This document shows, piece after piece, positions 1,390 through 15,650 of a DNA stretch of 24,000 bases. Source of the stretch: an uncultured Lachnospiraceae bacterium (GTDB lineage: Bacteria > Bacillota > Clostridia > Lachnospirales > Lachnospiraceae); assembly GCA_946609985.1 (NCBI GenBank), contig CAMOCB010000008.1, positions 48,739 to 72,738 on the forward strand, given 5' to 3'. A model generated the notes under the pieces. It searched no databases. It had not been told where the DNA came from and was given only the letters and a program-made list of their open reading frames with translations. The translations under genes and the position numbers were made by a program. Position 1 is the stretch's first letter. The number at the start of each line of letters is the position of its first letter.

Positions 1390-1391
1390 AG

Positions 1392-1466
1392 AGAAAATAG
1401 GGACTATGCAAATAGGGACGTTTCTGTTTTGCACATATGCAAAACAGAAACGTCCCTATTTGCATA
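1392..1466. repeat. REP-like units: a truncated 13-nt fragment (1392-1404) plus a head-to-head doublet, L(+) 1407-1433 and M(-) 1438-1464
   Basis: 1405-1433 (tatgcaaatagggacgtttctgttttgca) is the exact reverse complement of 1438-1466, with a 4-nt centre CATA. This gives a 29-bp perfect inverted repeat. The 27-mer is the same as units A and D further downstream. Confidence 0.9.
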
Positions 1467-1554
1467 TACTCATGTCTTTTATATTAATAATATGCTCTTG
1501 ACACGTTTGATACAATTGTAGTTAGAGAAAACTATCTAAGAGGAGGAAAATGCG

Positions 1555-2687: not shown

Positions 2688-2780
2688 GTTTACAAAAGAT
2701 GTCACTGGGGACGGGTCCCAGTGACCTCATTTCACAAGAAGTTCACAAAAGTTGTCATTGGGAACCGTCCCCGTGGCATC
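2688..2780. repeat. Two ~40-nt direct-repeat copies (2688-2725 and 2741-2777), each carrying a variant of the REP core. Copy 1 forms a hairpin at 2701-2725.
   Basis: gtttacaaaagatgtcactgggg aligns with gttcacaaaagttgtcattggga. Copy 1 has GGGGACGG at 2707-2714. Copy 2 has GAACCGTCCCC at 2762-2772, whose reverse complement GGGGACGGTTC is identical to 12748-12758 in REP unit E. The copy 1 stem is gtcactggg/cccagtgac with a 7-nt loop. Confidence 0.6.
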
Positions 2781-2792
2781 AAAAGGAGAAAT

Positions 2793-5450: not shown

Positions 5451-6604
5451 TACTGGAGGAACTGGCAGGAAGTGAGAGAACGGCAGGCGATATTGCTAAT
5501 ATGTGGCTGAATCACCTGACTACATTTCGAATAAGAGATATACAGATACTCAGAAAGCTGTACGGAGACGAGGTTGAGATAGTAAGGAATCTGAAAGACG
5601 ACAGTGAACTGGACATGCTGGTAAGTAAGGGCGTGCTGAAGCAGAGCACTGGCGCAGAAATAAGGGAGTCAGATATAGCTGGGTGGTACGATAATCTGAC
5701 GAAGCTAATGAATAGTAATAAGATAAAATGCATAACCCCGGCAAATGAGATGTACCCGGATAAGCTTAGGTGTATAGATCATAGTCCCCTTGCTCTATAT
5801 TTTCGGGGAAAACAGGACCTGTTCTACTCGGAGCACAGTATAGCAATAATAGGTAGTAGAAGACCTACTCACTACGGAGTAACTCAGGCGGAGCATTTCA
5901 GCGCAGAGCTTGCTATTAAGGGGATAACAATAATTAGCGGGATGGCTTACGGGATAGATTCCAAGGCACATGACACTGCTATAAAAAATGGCGGAGGTAC
6001 GATTGCTGTCCTTGGCGGCGGAGTAGATATATGTTATCCAAGGACGAATATGTCGATATATCAGGAAATGTGCAACACCCAACTGGTGATTTCAGAGTAC
6101 GAGCCTGGCACCGCTCATATCTCTCAGCATTTTCCTCTTAGAAACAGGATAATAAGTGGTCTATCGGATGGGGTGCTTCTAGTAGAGGCGGCACTTAGGA
6201 GCGGGACTCTTATAACAGCTGACTATGCCCTCGAGCAGGGGAAGAGTATATATGGTATACCAGGTAGACCTACGGATGTGATGTCGAGAGGAGTAAATAG
6301 CATTATCAAGCAGGGGGCAATGCTGGTGGATAGTCCGACGGATATTATTCTGGATATGTTTAAGTCAGAACTGGAGGTGGAGCGGCCAAAGAGGAAGAGA
6401 CGAAAGAAGGAGGCAGAGGAGGATGAAAAACTTAGTGCGACAGAGAAGCAAATAATAGGCATTTTGGGATATGAGCCTCTTTTTATAGATGACATTATCA
6501 GACATAATGAAATGCATGTTGCAGAGACCCTGCAGACCTTAAATGAGCTCGTTTCGAAGGGTAAAATTAAGTGCGTCGAAAAAGGCTACTATATATTAAG
6601 CTGA
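5447..6604 (+). CDS. dprA: DNA processing/protecting protein DprA (Smf)
   Basis: The start overlaps the comM stop (ATGA at 5447-5450). Rossmann-like core IAIIGSRRPT...SGMAYGIDSKAHDTAI...VISEYEPG...FPLRNRIISGLS, with a C-terminal winged-helix-like tail. Confidence 0.9.
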   Translation: MILEELAGSERTAGDIANMWLNHLTTFRIRDIQILRKLYGDEVEIVRNLKDDSELDMLVSKGVLKQSTGAEIRESDIAGWYDNLTKLMNSNKIKCITPANEMYPDKLRCIDHSPLALYFRGKQDLFYSEHSIAIIGSRRPTHYGVTQAEHFSAELAIKGITIISGMAYGIDSKAHDTAIKNGGGTIAVLGGGVDICYPRTNMSIYQEMCNTQLVISEYEPGTAHISQHFPLRNRIISGLSDGVLLVEAALRSGTLITADYALEQGKSIYGIPGRPTDVMSRGVNSIIKQGAMLVDSPTDIILDMFKSELEVERPKRKRRKKEAEEDEKLSATEKQIIGILGYEPLFIDDIIRHNEMHVAETLQTLNELVSKGKIKCVEKGYYILS

Positions 6605-6697: not shown

Positions 6698-8758
6698 ATG
6701 GCTAAAAATCTTGTCATTGTTGAGTCGCCTACCAAGGCAAAGACTATTAAGAAATTCTTAGGTAAAAACTATGATGTTATTGCCTCAGAAGGACATATAA
6801 GAGATCTTCCTAAAAGTAGTATGGGAATAGATATAGATAATGACTATGAGCCTCATTATATTACTATCAGAGGAAAGGGTGAACTTCTAGCTACGCTCAA
6901 GAAGGCTTCTAAGAAAGCTGATTTTGTGTATCTCGCAACTGACCCGGACCGCGAGGGAGAGGCTATATCATATCATTTATCAGTTGCTCTTAAGCTTGAG
7001 GATAAGAAGTTTAAGAGAATAACATTTAATGAGATTACAAAAAATGCAGTAAAAACTTCTATTAAGAATGCACGTACAGTTGACATGGATCTGGTAGATG
7101 CTCAGCAGGCCAGAAGAGTCGTAGATAGACTTGTGGGTTATGAGATAAGTCCTCTCCTATGGGAGAAGCTTGGTAAGAAGAGTCTCTCTGCTGGTAGAGT
7201 TCAGTCTGTTGCACTCAAGATGATCTCAGATAGAGAGAAGGAAATAGAGGCATTTATTCCTAAGGAATACTGGACTATAGAAGCTGACGTTAAGGTTCCT
7301 GGACAGAAGGGACTTGTTTCCTTTGAATATAAGGGAGAGATAACAGACGGTAAGGAAGCTGAGGATCTAAAGAAGAAGCTTATGAAGAGTGACTTCATCG
7401 TAAGCGACATCAAGACTTCAACCAGAACTAAGAAGGCGCCAGTGCCATTTACAACTAGTACACTTCAGCAGACGGCTGCAAGTAAGATAAATTTCTCTAC
7501 TTCGAAAACAATGAGAGTTGCTCAGCAGCTTTATGAAGGTGTTGAGATAAAGGGTAGAGGAACAGTTGGTCTTATTACATACCTGAGAACAGATTCGACA
7601 CGTATCTCTGAAGAGGCGGACGCAAATGTAAGACAGTATATACGTGATACCTTTGGAGCGGAGTACGAGGCTGAGAAGACGGAGCCTACAGGAGATAAGG
7701 CAAAGAACATCCAGGACGCTCACGAAGCTATAAGACCTACGGATGTAACTATTACTCCTGCAGTACTTAAGGGAAATGTAACTGCTGAGCAGTACAAGCT
7801 GTACAAGCTTATATATGAAAGATTTGTTGGCAGTAGAATGAAGCCTGCGGAATATAGCATTTATACTGTTACTATTTCAGCGGATGATAGTCTGTTTAAG
7901 GCTTCCAGCAGCACAGTTACATTTGCAGGATATCAAAATGTATATAATACAGAAGAGGAGAAGGCTAAGAAGGCTGTAAATCTTGGTGGAATCCAGAAGG
8001 GCGACAAGCTCGACTGCGAAGAAATAAGGACTCTGCAGCATTTCACGGAGCCACCTTCACATTATACGGAATCACTTCTGGTTCGTACGATGGAAGAAAA
8101 TGGTATCGGAAGACCATCAACTTATGCCCCAACTATTGCAACTTTGCTCAATAGGCGATATATTGTTAAGGAGCAGAAAAATCTGTATATAACTGAACTG
8201 GGGCAGGCGGTTAATAATGTTATGGAAACTGCCTTCCCGGAGATAGTAGATATAGACTTTACTGCTAATATGGAAACTCTTCTGGATAGCATAGGCGAAG
8301 GAAAAACAGACTGGAAGGTTGTTGTAAGAAACTTCTACCCAGACCTTGAAAATGAGATAAAGCATGCTTCCGAGAATCTTGAGAAGATCAAGATAGCTGA
8401 CGAGGTCAGCGATGAGTATTGTGAAGAATGCGGAGCTCAGTTGGTCATCAAGTATGGTGCTTACGGTAAGTTTCTGGCTTGTCCAAACTTCCCAGAATGT
8501 AGGTTCACAAAACCATATTTTGAGAAGATTGGCGTGGCTTGTCCTGATTGTGGTGGTGATATAGTTAGAAAGACCACTAGAAAGGGACGCCCATTCTATG
8601 GCTGTATAAATTATCCGGAATGTGAATTCACTTCATGGAATAGACTGGTCAATAAGAAATGTCCTAAATGTGGAAAGTACATGATCATAAAGGGCAAGAA
8701 GATAGTTTGTTCCGATAATGAATGTGGTTACACAGAAGATAGACCGGAAGAGGATTAA
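6698..8758 (+). CDS. topA: DNA topoisomerase I (type IA) with C-terminal zinc ribbons
   Basis: RBS GGAGG. Toprim N-terminus LVIVESPTKAKTI and DPDREGEAIS, active-site region GLITYLRTDSTR, and three C-terminal CxxC...CxxC ribbons (CEECG..CPNFPEC, CPDCG..CINYPEC, CPKCG..CSDNEC). Confidence 0.97.
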   Translation: MAKNLVIVESPTKAKTIKKFLGKNYDVIASEGHIRDLPKSSMGIDIDNDYEPHYITIRGKGELLATLKKASKKADFVYLATDPDREGEAISYHLSVALKLEDKKFKRITFNEITKNAVKTSIKNARTVDMDLVDAQQARRVVDRLVGYEISPLLWEKLGKKSLSAGRVQSVALKMISDREKEIEAFIPKEYWTIEADVKVPGQKGLVSFEYKGEITDGKEAEDLKKKLMKSDFIVSDIKTSTRTKKAPVPFTTSTLQQTAASKINFSTSKTMRVAQQLYEGVEIKGRGTVGLITYLRTDSTRISEEADANVRQYIRDTFGAEYEAEKTEPTGDKAKNIQDAHEAIRPTDVTITPAVLKGNVTAEQYKLYKLIYERFVGSRMKPAEYSIYTVTISADDSLFKASSSTVTFAGYQNVYNTEEEKAKKAVNLGGIQKGDKLDCEEIRTLQHFTEPPSHYTESLLVRTMEENGIGRPSTYAPTIATLLNRRYIVKEQKNLYITELGQAVNNVMETAFPEIVDIDFTANMETLLDSIGEGKTDWKVVVRNFYPDLENEIKHASENLEKIKIADEVSDEYCEECGAQLVIKYGAYGKFLACPNFPECRFTKPYFEKIGVACPDCGGDIVRKTTRKGRPFYGCINYPECEFTSWNRLVNKKCPKCGKYMIIKGKKIVCSDNECGYTEDRPEED

Positions 8759-11405: not shown

Positions 11406-12506
11406 ATGGCTATTACAGCAGCAGACGTTAAGAAACTTAGAGAGATGACAGGCGCTGGTATGATGGATTGTAAGAAGGCTCTTACAGAGACAGACGGCGA
11501 CTTTGATGGCGCAGTTGAGTTCCTTCGTAAGAAGGGTCTTGCAACAGCAGAGAAGAAGGCTGGTAGAATCGCAGCTGAGGGTATCGTTGCAACAGTTCTT
11601 TCAGATGATAACAAAACAGCTACTATCATTGAGGTTAACTCAGAGACAGACTTCGTTGCTAAAAATGAAGTATTCCAGACATATGTAAATGGTCTTGCTA
11701 CACAGATTAATAATAATGATTATGCAGATATGGCTGCATTTATGGCAGCTAAGTCAGATATAGATTCTGCTTCAACTGTAGAAGAGTATCACAAGGCTAT
11801 GGTTGCTAAGATAGGTGAGAACCTTACAATTCGTCGTTTTGAAAAGCTTACAGGCGACGTTGTTGTTTCTTACATTCACATGGGCGGTAAGATTGGTGTT
11901 CTTGTAGAAGCTCAGGCTGATCAGACAGGTGATGCTATAACAGAGGCTATGAAGAACGTAGCTATGCAGATCGCAGCAATGAATCCACAGTATGTATCAA
12001 GAGATGAGATCTCAGCTGATACACTTGCTAAGGAGAAGGAAATCGTAATAGACAGCTCACTCGCTGATCCTGCTTCACTTCCAAAGCCAATCCTTAATGC
12101 AGTTATTACTGAGGCTATTGATTCAAATAAGTGGAGCGATGCTGATAAGGCTGCTTATGAAGAGCAGAAGACAAACAAGTTCTGGTATAACTTCATTTCA
12201 GATGAGGGTATGCAGGTTCTTAGAGATATCGCATCAGATCACAAGGCTGAGTACCTTGATAACAAGATCTTCGCTGGTCTTGTAGAGGGACGTTTTGCTA
12301 AGCACCTTAAGGAGATCTGCCTTGTAGATCAGGCTTATGTAAAGGCTGAGGACAAGGAAAACGTTAAGCAGTACGTTGAGAAGGTTGCTAAGGAGACAGG
12401 TTCTAACTTCGCTATCAAGAGCTTCATCAGATATGAGACAGGTGAAGGCCTTGAAAAGAAGAACGAAGACTTCGCAGCAGAAGTTGCAGCTCAGATGGGC
12501 CAGTAA
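11406..12506 (+). CDS. tsf: Translation elongation factor Ts (366 aa; carries an internal insertion)
   Basis: RBS AAGGAGG. MAITAADVKKLREMTGAGMMDCKKALTETDGD...IIEVNSETDFVAKNE...VEGRFAKHLKEICLVDQAYV...IRYETGEGLEKK. Confidence 0.97.
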   Translation: MAITAADVKKLREMTGAGMMDCKKALTETDGDFDGAVEFLRKKGLATAEKKAGRIAAEGIVATVLSDDNKTATIIEVNSETDFVAKNEVFQTYVNGLATQINNNDYADMAAFMAAKSDIDSASTVEEYHKAMVAKIGENLTIRRFEKLTGDVVVSYIHMGGKIGVLVEAQADQTGDAITEAMKNVAMQIAAMNPQYVSRDEISADTLAKEKEIVIDSSLADPASLPKPILNAVITEAIDSNKWSDADKAAYEEQKTNKFWYNFISDEGMQVLRDIASDHKAEYLDNKIFAGLVEGRFAKHLKEICLVDQAYVKAEDKENVKQYVEKVAKETGSNFAIKSFIRYETGEGLEKKNEDFAAEVAAQMGQ

Positions 12507-12510
12507 ACTA

Positions 12511-12599
12511 TGCAAATAGGGACGTTTCTGTTTTGCACATATGCATATAGGGACGGTTCTGTTTTGCATATATGCAAATAGGGACGCTTCTCATTTGCA
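12511..12599 (+). repeat. REP-like cluster: three direct (+) units, A 12511-12537, B 12542-12568, C 12573-12599
   Basis: A tgcaaatagggacgtttctgttttgca; B tgcatatagggacggttctgttttgca; C tgcaaatagggacgcttctcatttgca. Linkers are CATA and TATA, on an exact 31-bp period. The cluster starts 4 nt after the tsf stop. Confidence 0.9.
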
Positions 12600-12622
12600 T
12601 ATATGATAAATGAATAGTAACG

Positions 12623-12660
12623 AATGAGTCATAAGGTGTATAGCCTTATGGCTCATTTTT
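12623..12660 (+). terminator. Rho-independent terminator of rpsB-tsf, downstream of REP cluster A-C
   Basis: About 14-bp stem aatgagtcataagg / ccttatggctcatt (one G-U pair) with a 7-nt loop, then a TTTTT run. Confidence 0.8.
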
Positions 12661-12709
12661 GCTATTTAGGAAAAAATGCAACGATTTGTTGCGTTATACA
12701 AACTAATTG

Positions 12710-12767
12710 TGCAAATAGGGACGTTTCTGTTTTGCACATATGCAAATGGGGACGGTTCTCATTTGCA
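12710..12767 (+). repeat. REP-like doublet: D(+) 12710-12736 and E(+) 12741-12767
   Basis: D tgcaaatagggacgtttctgttttgca (identical to A, L and M); E tgcaaatggggacggttctcatttgca; linker CATA. Confidence 0.9.
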
Positions 12768-12794
12768 CATATCAAGTGAAGGAGGGGGATTATT

Positions 12795-13535
12795 ATGCCA
12801 AGAACGGCAAGAAAACAAGGAAAAACGGGATTCTATCATATTATTACTAGGGGAAATGCTAAACAAATACTATTTGAAGATAACAAAGATTACAGCTTTT
12901 ATATTTATTTGATTAGCAAATTTAGTAGAGAAATGGGCATAGCAATTAATGCTTATTGCCTTATGGACAATCATGTACATTTATTAGTGTATGATCCAGT
13001 GTTTAACATTTCACAAATGATGAAAAAAATCGATGTAACATACGCGAAATATTATAATGAAAAGTATGAGAGAGTGGGACATCTGTTTCAAGGGAGGTTT
13101 CTCAGTGAGGAAATTGATAATGAATCATATCTTTTGACAGCATTTAGATATATATTGCAAAATCCTGAAAAGGCTGGGGTGGCTATTGCATCTGAATATA
13201 AGTGGAGTAGTTACAGATATTATGATACAATTAACTCGTTTGTAGACACAAGTGTTTTCACCGCTTTAATAGGTGATTGGAAAAACTATACTACTTTTAT
13301 TTCTTTACAAAATAGTGATAAATGTATGGAATTTGATACATTATCCAATGATGATGATTGGGCACTTACTGTTTTAAGGAATACAATTAGTGTTAGTAGT
13401 GGTACGGCTTTACAAAAATTAAGCAAACACGAAAGGGATAAATGTATTCGTAAGCTAAGAGATAAAGGACTTACAATTACTCAAATTGCAAGATTTACAG
13501 GTTTAAATAGAAATACTGTTTCTCAGGCAAAATAA
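12795..13535 (+). CDS. REP-associated tyrosine transposase (RAYT)-like protein, IS200/IS605 TnpA (HUH, Y1) superfamily, with a C-terminal HTH extension
   Basis: RBS GGAGGGGG at 12781-12788. FYHIITRGN, HUH motif LMDNHVHLLV (H60, H62), GHLFQGRF, and the catalytic-Tyr helix FRYILQNPEKAGV (Y119). C-terminus KGLTITQIARFTGLNRNTVSQ. The gene is AT-rich relative to its neighbours. Confidence 0.8.
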   Translation: MPRTARKQGKTGFYHIITRGNAKQILFEDNKDYSFYIYLISKFSREMGIAINAYCLMDNHVHLLVYDPVFNISQMMKKIDVTYAKYYNEKYERVGHLFQGRFLSEEIDNESYLLTAFRYILQNPEKAGVAIASEYKWSSYRYYDTINSFVDTSVFTALIGDWKNYTTFISLQNSDKCMEFDTLSNDDDWALTVLRNTISVSSGTALQKLSKHERDKCIRKLRDKGLTITQIARFTGLNRNTVSQAK

Positions 13536-13539
13536 AATA

Positions 13540-13628
13540 TGCAAATAGGGACGGTTCTTATTTGCATATAGGCAAAAGAGAAACGTCCCCATTTGCATAT
13601 GTGCAAAAGAGAACCGTCCCTATTTGCA
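13540..13628. repeat. REP-like cluster: F(+) 13540-13566, G(-) 13571-13597, H(-) 13602-13628
   Basis: F tgcaaatagggacggttcttatttgca; rc(G) tgcaaatggggacgtttctcttttgcc; rc(H) tgcaaatagggacggttctcttttgca. Linkers are TATA and TATG on the 31-bp period. The cluster starts 4 nt after the RAYT stop. Confidence 0.9.
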
Positions 13629-13647
13629 TAGTACTAATAAGGAGAAG

Positions 13648-14712
13648 ATGATGGTAGATTATACAGAGATACTTACAAATGTTGATGTGGATGCAGTGCT
13701 TATAACGGATCCATATAATTTAAGGTACTATACTGGCTTCCGTGGTGGAGAGGGCGTGGCGCTTATTTCGAAGGGTTCAAAGATACTCATAACTGACTCG
13801 AGGTACACAGAAGCTGCTGGAAAGGAATGCTATGAAGGCTTTATGGTAAGACAGTTTGGAAATGGTATCTCCACGATAAGTATCATCAAAGAGTACATTT
13901 CTTCTGATGGTATAAATACTCTTGGCTTTGAGGATATGTCTATAAGCTATAGTGATTATCAGAAGTTTTCAGGTGGGCTTGGATGTGAAATGAAGCCTAT
14001 AAAGGACGCACTCCTTATTCCAAGACAAATTAAGTCGCCTGAGGAGATAGAACTTCTCCGTGAGGCAGAGCATATCGGCGATATGGCATTTGACGATATT
14101 CTTAGTATATTAAAGCCTGGTATGACCGAGCTCGAGGTTGCAGCAGAGATAGAATACAGTATGAAAAGACATGGTGCAGAGGGACTTTCCTTTGATACGA
14201 TTGCGGCGTCTGGGGTAAATTCTTCCATGCCTCATGCGATTCCTTCTGATAAGAAGCTAGAAAATGGCGATTTTCTTACAATGGATTTTGGGTGCATTTA
14301 TAAGGGGTATTGCTCTGATATGACCAGAACTGTTTGTATAGGTAAGGCTAGTGATGAGCAGAAGAAAGTTTATAACATAGTTTTATCTGCACAGCTTTCA
14401 GTGCTTGAAAATCTTAAACCTGGTATGATGTGTAAGGATGTAGATAGAATAGCAAGAGATTACATAAATGCTCAAGGGTATGGTGATTACTTTGGTCATG
14501 GACTGGGGCATGGCGTTGGACTTTACATTCACGAGTCCCCAGCATTTAACACTCGCGATACTTCGATTGTTAAGCCGGGTATGATAGAAACAGATGAGCC
14601 GGGAATATATTTGCCAGGTAAATTTGGTGTTCGTATAGAAGATATGATTCTAATTACAAAAAATGGTTGTGAACCACTTGCAAGATCACCTAAAGAACTT
14701 ATTGAACTCTAA
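13648..14712 (+). CDS. M24-family Xaa-Pro aminopeptidase/dipeptidase (PepP/PepQ-like)
   Basis: RBS AAGGAG at 13639-13644. The start is ATG 13648 or 13651; the ORF-track TTG at 13624 lies inside REP unit H. Creatinase-like N-terminal domain. Metal-ligand motifs DFGCIYKGYCSDMTRT, HGLGHGVGLYIHE, EPGIY, RIEDMI. Confidence 0.9.
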   Translation: MMVDYTEILTNVDVDAVLITDPYNLRYYTGFRGGEGVALISKGSKILITDSRYTEAAGKECYEGFMVRQFGNGISTISIIKEYISSDGINTLGFEDMSISYSDYQKFSGGLGCEMKPIKDALLIPRQIKSPEEIELLREAEHIGDMAFDDILSILKPGMTELEVAAEIEYSMKRHGAEGLSFDTIAASGVNSSMPHAIPSDKKLENGDFLTMDFGCIYKGYCSDMTRTVCIGKASDEQKKVYNIVLSAQLSVLENLKPGMMCKDVDRIARDYINAQGYGDYFGHGLGHGVGLYIHESPAFNTRDTSIVKPGMIETDEPGIYLPGKFGVRIEDMILITKNGCEPLARSPKELIEL

Positions 14713-14716
14713 AATG

Positions 14717-14810
14717 AGTAAATAGTGTCGTTTCTATTTTGCTCAAAAAGTGAGTAAATAAGAACCGTCCCTATTTGCATATATGCAAAAGAGAACCGTC
14801 TCTATTTGCA
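14717..14810. repeat. REP-like cluster: I(+, degenerate) 14717-14743, J(-) 14753-14779, K(-) 14784-14810
   Basis: I agtaaatagtgtcgtttctattttgct; rc(J) tgcaaatagggacggttcttatttact; rc(K) tgcaaatagagacggttctcttttgca. It has the same (+,-,-) architecture as F-G-H and starts 4 nt after the peptidase stop. Confidence 0.8.
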
Positions 14811-14890
14811 TACTTTTAAGAATTATTTAAGGACATTTGGGAAGGAAATGTGATATATTGACGTTATAAAAGATTTAAGGAGTGAAGGTA

Positions 14891-15643
14891 ATGGCTATTC
14901 AACTAAAAAAGGATAATTCAAATGATGATGGGGCAGAGCGCATAACAGAAGAATTCGTTGAGGAGTATTCCAAGTTTAGAGGTGGAATCGGGGACGGAAC
15001 CGTTGATATTGATAAGATAAATGATCTCCCTGCCTATACGGGTCCATCGGTTATACCTGGGGGAAGTACAGGTCTTAATTCAGGAAAGAAGAAGAGAAAT
15101 ATCATTTCCCTTATTATTGTCGGAGCGATTCTGATTGCTGTAGCATTTTTCATTTATAAGGGTGCTATGTATATGACAAGTTCAAGTGGAAAAGATATTA
15201 CTGATAAGCTGACTATGACTGAGGAAGAGCTTTCTAAGGATATGGGGGTAACCTTTGAGGAGAATGCGGACAAGGTAAGGTCTATATATCAGTATTCTAA
15301 TGGTACTGTAACGGTTAAATCAGCCGAAGACCTAAATATTGTTTACATCAATGGTAAACAGGTGGGTATAAATACTACAAGTAGAAAATACAGATTTTAT
15401 GATATAGGTATAAATGATCCTAACCAGACAGTACAGAAAAAAACCTCTTATAAGTATGAGAATTATACTACTGTACTAAGTGATGTGATAGGTGGTAATT
15501 CTGATGTGTATATTTACTATAATACCCAGAATAATGATTGCCTTTTCTTGATAATAAGTAAGAATACTAATAGAGTCGTTAATATGACTTATTATACTGA
15601 TTGCGACAAAGTAATGGAAAATCTTAGCAGGATTGGTGAATAA
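14891..15643 (+). CDS. Hypothetical single-pass membrane protein
   Basis: ATG 14891 lies 8 nt after AAGGAG (14877-14882), which I prefer to the GTG at 14882. The TM helix IISLIIVGAILIAVAFFIY follows KKKRN. The extracytoplasmic part is Asn/Tyr/Thr-rich. No family recognised. Confidence 0.6.
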   Translation: MAIQLKKDNSNDDGAERITEEFVEEYSKFRGGIGDGTVDIDKINDLPAYTGPSVIPGGSTGLNSGKKKRNIISLIIVGAILIAVAFFIYKGAMYMTSSSGKDITDKLTMTEEELSKDMGVTFEENADKVRSIYQYSNGTVTVKSAEDLNIVYINGKQVGINTTSRKYRFYDIGINDPNQTVQKKTSYKYENYTTVLSDVIGGNSDVYIYYNTQNNDCLFLIISKNTNRVVNMTYYTDCDKVMENLSRIGE

Positions 15644-15650
15644 AAAAAGC

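Follow-up and report, generated by a model that had tools for sequence, protein, structure and literature searches.

The analysed window is a 24,000-nt stretch of Lachnospiraceae DNA, and all coordinates refer to its positions. The window carries a single RAYT-like gene of the HUH-Y1 type, an open reading frame (ORF) at 12795-13535 on the (+) strand with a product of 246 aa, which occupies one fixed slot between tsf (EF-Ts) and pepP (M24 aminopeptidase). The slot interrupts a run of housekeeping genes, with topA, rpsB and tsf before it and rimP, nusA, infB, rbfA, truB and ribF after it; all genes of the run are on the (+) strand and the GC skew is positive throughout. The RAYT gene is surrounded by short hairpin-forming repeats of the repetitive extragenic palindromic (REP) kind (Table 1). 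The locus is very probably a REPtron/TIRtron, i.e. a single chromosomal RAYT-like gene of the TIRYT/subclass 2.1 type embedded in its repeats. The GC content of the gene was 31.0% (22.7% at third codon positions, GC3), compared with 40.4% in the window and 35–45% (GC3 29–46%) in the neighbouring genes. The AT-richness had already been stated in an earlier sequence-only reading of this DNA, and its hand counts, 35 G+C in the first 120 nt of the RAYT gene and 27 in the first 60 nt of tsf, were reproduced.

The 27-mer TGCAAATAGGGACGGTTCTNNTTTGCA occurred 12 times in the window at no more than 3 mismatches, with 0.00 occurrences expected from 100 shuffles. The inverted 58-nt doublets around the gene, which the sequence-only reading had put forward, were obtained again: 12710-12767 and the reverse complement of 13571-13628 match at 53 of 58 positions, including the CATA linker, and in a repeat search of the window the same inverted pair extended to 63 nt with 90% complementarity. 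The flanks of the gene hold five (+) units upstream and a (+)(-)(-) array downstream, which corrects the earlier layout in two respects. The units from 12710 onwards are present, but the bracket reaches beyond them, since three further (+) units at 12511-12599, after the tsf stop codon, had been overlooked. Both doublets are present, but the downstream side is not a plain doublet, the (+) unit at 13540-13566 having been missed. Because this unit is nearer to the stop codon, the ATGGGGACG unit at 13571-13597 is not the gene-proximal one on the downstream side. Together with the unit at 13602, the unit at 13540-13566 forms the outer stem of a hairpin of -34.7 kcal/mol. The three units behind tsf lie upstream of a terminator-like hairpin and so would be transcribed within the tsf 3' end. 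A sigma-70 promoter scan of 12300-13800 resulted in 8 sites compared with 6.3 in shuffles, and with no excess over the shuffles no RAYT promoter is claimed. No Rfam family matched in the window at gathering thresholds. A CRISPR-like reading of the arrays was rejected, as the arrays have a period of 31 nt and no spacers, and the units occur in both orientations.

Table 1. Coordinates of the RAYT gene, its motifs and the repeat elements in the window.
Feature	Position	Strand	Remarks
RAYT/TIRYT-type HUH-Y1 gene	12795..13535	+	N-terminal Y1_Tnp domain, C-terminal helix-turn-helix
HUH motif H60-V61-H62	12972..12980	+	nt = CATGTACAT, by direct reading; aligns with HMH of E. coli TnpA(REP)
Catalytic-Tyr motif Y119-ILQ-N123-P124 (Y---NP)	13149..13166	+	aligns with YIYINP of 4ER8
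C-terminal helix-turn-helix, residues about 205-246	13407..13532	+	weak Pfam matches, AF2 helices, invariant residues
Three tandem (+) REP units, period 31	12511..12599	+	between tsf stop codon and tsf terminator
Terminator-like hairpin and T-run, probably the tsf terminator	12622..12668 (hairpin 12622-12658)	+	kept in second-allele loci
Left 58-nt doublet, two (+) REP units, upstream of RAYT	12710..12767	+	repeat search, pattern count
(+) REP unit, 4 nt past RAYT stop	13540..13566	+	0 mismatches to consensus
Right 58-nt doublet, two (-) REP units	13571..13628	-	ends about 20 nt before pepP start codon
REP doublet (+)(-), 4-nt spacer, 18 nt past stop of upstream gene	1407..1464	.	29-bp hairpin, -34.6 kcal/mol
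Truncated outer unit around the 1407-1464 doublet	1391-1404 and 1467-1472		GAGAAAATAGGGAC at 1391-1404; TACTCA at 1467-1472
REP cluster after pepP	14715..14810	.	degenerate (+) 14715-14745; (-) 14753-14779, arms of two subfamilies; (-) 14784-14810
Palindrome GTCACTGGGGACGGGTCCCAGTGAC, same core	2701..2725	.	stem-GGGGAC-N-GTCCCC-stem type
Second repeat family, ..GTGGGGACGGTTCCCAATGACAACTTTTGTG	2744..2781	-	same core as REP units

The hallmarks of the HUH-Y1 family were recovered in the ORF as proposed earlier, with HVH at 12972-12980 and TAT, the codon of Y119, at 13149-13151 within FRYILQNPEKAG. The identity of the domain was confirmed by profile, Pfam Y1_Tnp matching with 53.7 bits (cutoff 23). 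The best NCBIfam match was REP_Tyr_transpos (NF047646) with 54 bits, which is under the curated equivalog cutoff of 80 and marks the protein as a divergent relative of the REP model, not an equivalog. The IS200 model gave 26 bits (cutoff 55). The REP model was matched by 32 of the 32 aligned relatives and the IS200 model, weakly, by 8 of these. H62, Q99, Y119, N123, P124 and W137 were invariant in the 32 relatives and H60 was conserved in at least 90%; the loss of HUH or Tyr residues in relatives, regarded beforehand as an argument against a RAYT, was not observed. The Y---NP motif (Y-x3-NP) is the signature of all class-2 (TnpAREP-like) proteins (Quentin et al. 2018, PMC6006769). The AlphaFold (AF2) model had a pLDDT of 87.7 and three terminal helices. 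Its best fold match in the PDB was 4ER8, E. coli TnpA(REP) with a REP hairpin (E 7e-8, TM 0.71 on target), followed by the IS608, ISDra2 and IS200 transposases. The sequence and profile searches of the PDB were marginal, giving 4ER8 at E 0.16–0.48 and one spurious dynein-associated match. A grouping with IS200 TnpA, another argument raised beforehand against a RAYT, was contradicted by the model scores, the Y---NP motif and the best fold.

The last approximately 40 residues are a helix-turn-helix (HTH). HTH_23 (E 4.9e-4), HTH_7 and Sigma70_r4 of Pfam matched there, all below cutoff; HTH_23 was matched in 7 and HTH_28 in 4 of the 32 relatives, among which R214, G225, R233, T235 and G236 of this region are invariant. 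Judged from its sequence, the protein is a class-2 TnpA(REP)/RAYT-like protein with a C-terminal HTH, of the TIRYT/subclass 2.1 type by architecture, and not an IS200 transposase. At 50% identity the family falls into 797 clusters when E≤1e-30 is required and into 12,515 when the limit is E≤1e-10, and it is common in rumen and gut Clostridia. Its carriage by plasmids (20 of 72,556 records, all below 43% identity) and by viral contigs (6 loci) is negligible.

The repeat unit is an imperfect hairpin of 27–31 nt. Its upper stem and loop make up a conserved core, (A/G)GGGACG(G/T)TTCT, and its outer stem, T(A/G)TGCAAA...TTTGCA(C/T)A, is lineage-specific. The single-strand fold consists of the outer stem TGCAAA/TTTGCA, a bulged T, the inner stem AGGGA/TCTCT with a G.T pair, and the loop CGGT. 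The fold energy of a single unit was -5.0 kcal/mol on the (+) strand and -3.4 kcal/mol on the (-) strand; the hairpin is more stable on the (+) strand because the G.T pair of the core becomes A.C on the complement. The (+)(-) doublets with a 4-nt spacer fold into 29-bp hairpins of about -34.6 kcal/mol.

The repeats form a dispersed intergenic family located beside gene 3' ends. When the pattern AAATRGGGACGNTTCTNNTTTGC was scanned over 185,579 species-representative genomes, 50 stretches were matched, nearly all from three rumen Lachnospiraceae metagenome-assembled genomes (MAGs). The exact-pattern matches per MAG, 29, 33 and 15, were spread over many contigs and are lower bounds from one strict pattern which favours one stem type. 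The occurrence of the repeat beyond the locus, as anticipated in the sequence-only reading, was thereby confirmed. The positions of clusters were determined with a looser core search within the stretches from the genome scan. In total 51 of the 53 clusters were intergenic. Where both flanks could be typed, a gene 3' end was always adjacent, frequently at a distance of about 20 nt or less, and no cluster was placed between divergent gene starts. The commonest arrangement was the (+)(-) doublet. This placement is the classical REP distribution. Searching the literature for the core motif brought up nothing but eukaryotic primers with no relation to it.

An identical protein is encoded on 3 contigs, from the rumen-type MAG GCA_002368685.1 and ENA metagenome contigs, each time at tsf-RAYT-pepP. 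Near-identical full-length copies at other sites, by which an ordinary insertion sequence would be recognised, were absent from this set. In tblastn of all fetched REP-bearing stretches of the three MAGs, the gene was detected only in RUG12167, on two contigs, both at tsf-RAYT-pepP. The RAYT alleles of these contigs, L016 (CACYQC010000014) and L031 (CACYQC010000029), were 98% and 79% identical to the window protein, respectively. As RUG12167 has the slot twice with different alleles, the bin probably mixes two strains.

The association of the gene with repeats of a fixed apex and covarying stems recurs in many independent lineages. Homologues of 48–54% identity (Butyrivibrio sp. NC2002, another isolate genome and a metagenome contig) stand in unrelated gene neighbourhoods, and palindromic units of their own, alike in a GGGGAC(G/A)G core and unlike in their stems, flank each of them. 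Over the range of 30–55% identity the homologues were located in other gene contexts, many with hairpins sharing the core GGGGACGGTTCT, and 80 further loci at 30–49% identity were obtained in a metagenome scan. The exact core GGGACGGTTC was present in 43 loci, with arms of 6–11 nt which vary between loci and pair within the unit. In an ungapped alignment of 42 units, representatives picked by best stem and biased in that respect, 80.5% of the cells were paired compared with 46.6% after shuffling (0 of 500 shuffles reached the value). All 11 pairs of this alignment showed double changes, and its covariation score was 0.823, compared with 0.13–0.20 when the partners were slid by 1–3 columns. In the unselected set of 113 units from 41 loci, 6.89 of 11 pairs were Watson-Crick within units and 3.61 between loci. 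By a strict hairpin criterion, units were recognised in 32 of the 55 metagenome and genome loci with usable flanks, mostly (+) upstream and mostly (-) downstream of the gene. Upstream cores lay a median of 79 nt ahead of the start codon, and downstream cores a median of 36 nt past the stop codon.

Different alleles of the gene were found in the same slot. Two homologous proteins from other metagenomes, P0003 (80% identity to the window protein) and P0002 (82%), are encoded at tsf-RAYT-pepP, and every unit at their loci, after tsf as well as before and after the gene, has the stem TGAGTATAT...TTACTCA. This stem replaces T(A/G)TGCAAAT...TTTGCA, and the core is unchanged. When the window is compared with the P0003 genome, the proteins of six neighbouring genes are 95–100% identical and their synonymous divergence (dS) is 0.09–0.31; the RAYT proteins are 80% identical with a dS of 1.10. 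The corresponding dN/dS of 0.10 means purifying selection. The divergent block begins at the tsf stop codon and ends at the pepP ribosome-binding site. With a dS far above that of the neighbours, the cassette is much older than its surroundings, though under purifying selection. Its divergence points to replacement by recombination or to long-maintained alleles. The claim that the transposase is domesticated is shown only in part, since with such divergence relative to the neighbours horizontal replacement is possible.

The repeats have changed recently, and unit gain, loss and switch of type were observed between close relatives. Downstream of the gene at 14882-15643 lies an empty site in the window, GGTGA-AT-AAAAAAAGC, and in L031 the same site is occupied by a unit at the stop codon, GGTGA-GTAAATAAGAACCGTCCCTATATACTC-AAAAAAAGC. 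In L058, two units follow the gene orthologous to 14882-15643. The arm of the L031 and L058 units overlaps the last codon and the stop codon (window 15641-15650), so that GAA TAA is turned into GAG TAA and the protein is unchanged. The arrays after pepP differ among close relatives by exactly one 31-nt period and by stem type. Stem types A and B both occur scattered through the related MAGs, and the left and right arms nearly always belong to one type: 75 units were A-A, 29 were B-B and 4 were true hybrids. The hybrid-arm units were considered as a sign of exchange at the core and rejected, 4 units from 2 independent events among about 129 being too few.

Three independent sites show an outer unit that is truncated, after GGGAC in two of them and after GGGACGG in the third, with an intact unit or doublet following directly. 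These are window 1391-1472 with its orthologues (L024 6805-6905, L035 4018-4118), a site at about 7890 in L010, and one in L047/L049. Both nested sites that were seen in more than one genome have the mirror half, GTCCC... or CCGTCCC..., on the far side. Free-standing palindromes of the form stem-GGGGAC-N-GTCCCC-stem were found at window 2701-2725 and flanking homologues in L086 and L109. The nested sites and free palindromes would fit a working hypothesis in which DNA is broken and joined at the conserved core; they could also stem from palindrome processing or from recombination of short cores that are identical. A further suggestion, conceivable although we regard it with considerable doubt, is that the hairpin apex and not a foot tag serves as the site of recognition and of cleavage, joining and insertion, that pairs of allele and stem specificity are swapped as cassettes, and that REPINs home into REPs.

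A second repeat family shares the core and has other flanks (..GTGGGGACGGTTCC(T/C)nnTGACAACTTTTGTG). It gave 6 exact matches in the stretches of related MAGs and was seen in L011, L015, L021, L025, L027 and L030. In L025 two inverted copies of this family (6547-6582 and 7121-7156) enclose a small ORF together with a REP doublet, and in the window the second-family element adjoins the GGGGAC/GTCCC palindrome upstream of a cobW-like gene. The tRNA scans of the loci with the second GGGGACGGTTCC element were negative. The core AAAT(A/G)GGGACGGTTCT, with other or similar stems, was also detected in distant Firmicutes: L019, L044 and L056 (Bacillus sp. FJAT-27225), L020 (Neobacillus), L033 and L051 (Desulfosporosinus), L037 (Pelotomaculum) and L045 (Thermohalobacter). 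The Desulfosporosinus copy, TGCAAATGGGGACGGTTCTTCTTTGCA, almost equals the window unit. No RAYT homologue was found within the 8-kb stretches of these distant Firmicutes.

Among the described systems, the TIRtrons are RAYT-like genes flanked by inverted repeats that share GGGGWSAS; some of the published terminal inverted repeats (TIRs) are self-complementary and some are moderately abundant, as dimers or clusters (Di Nocera, De Gregorio & Rocco 2013, PMC3733652). Subclass 2.1 of TnpA(Y1), marked by an extra C-terminal HTH of the Bac_DnaA_C, HTH_23 or HTH_28 type, was equated with the TIRYT of these authors by Quentin 2018 (PMC6006769). On account of its C-terminal HTH and the GGGGACGG-type core of its repeats, the window protein was provisionally grouped with TIRYT/TIRtron (Di Nocera 2013) and subclass 2.1 (Quentin 2018). 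The TIRYT/TIRtron systems are likewise characterised by an HUH-Y1 protein with a C-terminal HTH and a gene between inverted repeats with a G-rich motif. GGGGWSAS is fitted at 7 of 8 positions by GGGGACGG, or by AGGGACGG with A as the first G in most window units, and exactly by GGGGACAG in some relatives. The differences are that Firmicutes are unmentioned in the main texts of PMC3733652 and PMC6006769, and that no REP-like structures were reported beside subclass-2.1 genes by Quentin 2018, whereas clear hairpins with a 12-nt apex and tens of copies were found here.

With the RAYTs of E. coli and Pseudomonas (Nunvar 2010; Bertels & Rainey 2011; Ton-Hoang 2012; 4ER8) the locus shares a class-2 Y---NP gene flanked by repeats and a repeat type that follows the enzyme type, and with the REP/BIME/REPIN elements of these bacteria it shares short extragenic palindromes which appear to outnumber the gene, often form inverted doublets and lie past 3' ends. 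In contrast to those REPs, the window units are without a foot GTAG, their conserved part is the upper stem and loop, and direct tandem (+)(+)(+) arrays with a period of 31 stand beside the inverted doublets. The window protein is about 80 aa longer than the E. coli/Pseudomonas RAYTs and has an HTH, and its sequence similarity to 4ER8 is, as given above, marginal. The proposal of a RAYT with its REP elements was upheld as to a RAYT accompanied by its repeats, but the system is not of the E. coli GTAG-REP type. RAYT Group 1 is widespread, including Clostridia, and of low copy number, with modestly abundant flanking 16-mers of about 12 occurrences (PMC5581495). Compared by description, the abundance of these 16-mers is similar in scale to the tens of window-type units; a clostridial repeat sequence is not described in that paper. 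The statement that such systems are largely undescribed in clostridia was thus fair, but RAYT Group 1 had already been noted there (Bertels 2017, PMC5581495). The TnpA proteins of IS200/IS605 (IS608, ISDra2) resemble the window protein in the HUH-Y1 fold, and they recognise imperfect hairpins on single-stranded DNA. Their class-1 Tyr motif, multiple copies, same-strand ends and frequent tnpB partner are not shared by the window.

Several points weigh against the reading as a REPtron/TIRtron. The canonical GTAG tag, GT(A/G)G at the hairpin foot, is absent from the units, and the score of the REP_Tyr_transpos model is below its cutoff. The repeat counts are lower bounds, and all genomes are MAGs or metagenome contigs. 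No RAYT was contained in the fetched stretches of JAFVAQ01 and CAMKQB01 (L007-L053), which have about 30 units each, and no NCBI-sourced protein of at least 80% identity is on record for these; either the gene was lost and the repeats were kept, or the bins are incomplete. By the strict criterion, 23 of the 55 homologue loci, mostly the most distant ones, were without a recognisable unit. The binding and cleavage of the units by the RAYT are presumed by analogy with E. coli TnpA(REP) and IS608 TnpA, whose biochemistry is summarised in Quentin 2018. Finally, the cassette with its 31% GC (40% in the window) and its dS of 1.1 (0.09–0.31 in the neighbours) fits horizontal replacement better than quiet vertical domestication.

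The last point leads to the strongest of the rival explanations, in which REP-RAYT-REP is not a domesticated gene of long residence but a still-selfish cassette (TIRtron) that moves between lineages in one piece, either through its own activity or through recombination within the conserved genes on its flanks. The excess of dS over that of the six neighbours in the same genome pair, the limits of the divergent block, which coincide exactly with the tsf stop codon on one side and the pepP ribosome-binding site on the other, the low GC content in both alleles and the unrelated contexts of the more distant homologues are all in its favour, and L031, in which the B allele is combined with A-type downstream repeats, indicates recombination. 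Nevertheless, a selfish cassette is considered unlikely, since the three alleles (A, P0003, P0002) share one chromosomal slot, evidence of multiple copies was not found, the family is nearly absent from plasmids and viral contigs, and the purifying selection is strong. The selfish cassette and the RAYT/REP system are compatible with each other. An ordinary active IS200/IS605 insertion sequence, with the flanking hairpins as its left and right ends, was largely refuted and is hardly credible. The Pfam domain is named 'Transposase IS200 like', the fold also matches IS608 and ISDra2 TnpA, and a (+) unit lies on each side of the gene (12741, 13540), like the same-strand ends of IS200/IS605; the ends in the relatives are, however, usually inverted. 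The protein has Y---NP and not the class-1 Tyr motif, and its IS200 score is below both the cutoff of that model and the score of the REP model. Moreover, the locus is single and syntenic, the tnpB partner is absent, and it is the short units that were multiplied and not the 0.9-kb segment.

Alternatively, the repeats could be elements of the host that act as RNA or DNA (e.g. terminators, binding sites for proteins, or stabilisers of mRNA 3' ends) and owe their spread and persistence to the host, and the protein would be mainly an HTH DNA-binding factor linked to them by regulation and not by catalysis. The units only a few nt past stop codons, those of tsf within the transcribed 3' end before the terminator, the very stable hairpins formed by the doublets and the conserved C-terminal HTH would agree with such a role. 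However, the invariant and selected HUH and Tyr residues would be needless for a pure binder, and the stem covariation together with the strand-asymmetric core favours folded single strands over a duplex operator; an Rfam match was likewise missing. This explanation is judged to be improbable, and an RNA-level side function of the units could coexist with the REPtron/TIRtron reading.

If the locus is a REPtron/TIRtron, the enzyme would recognise the folded unit or its core on transiently single-stranded DNA, e.g. at replication forks. Cleavage would be performed by Y119, using the metal site held by the HUH motif, possibly at or beside GGGAC, and would be followed by rejoining. In this way units and inverted doublets might be copied, deleted or swapped in a REPIN-like manner, with the gene staying at tsf-RAYT-pepP and the units accumulating just past stop codons. 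One guess is that the HTH anchors the protein to duplex core DNA or to a partner. The units are part of 3' untranslated regions, and so they might plausibly affect the ends of mRNAs.

To our knowledge, REP/RAYT systems have been studied almost entirely in Proteobacteria. The system at the rumen Lachnospiraceae locus is of a known kind, though not previously described from this bacterial group, and it leaves the general picture of RAYTs unchanged. The details added are the conserved 12-nt core between covarying stems, stems specific to each allele, and the junctions of nested units. REP-like structures are now available for the HTH-bearing subclass, in which many family members are flanked by hairpins and some lineages have tens of copies. 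The repeats are a marker of strain-level variation in rumen Lachnospiraceae. The locus offers a concrete DNA substrate for biochemistry, and the two alleles with two stems at one locus constitute a natural specificity experiment.

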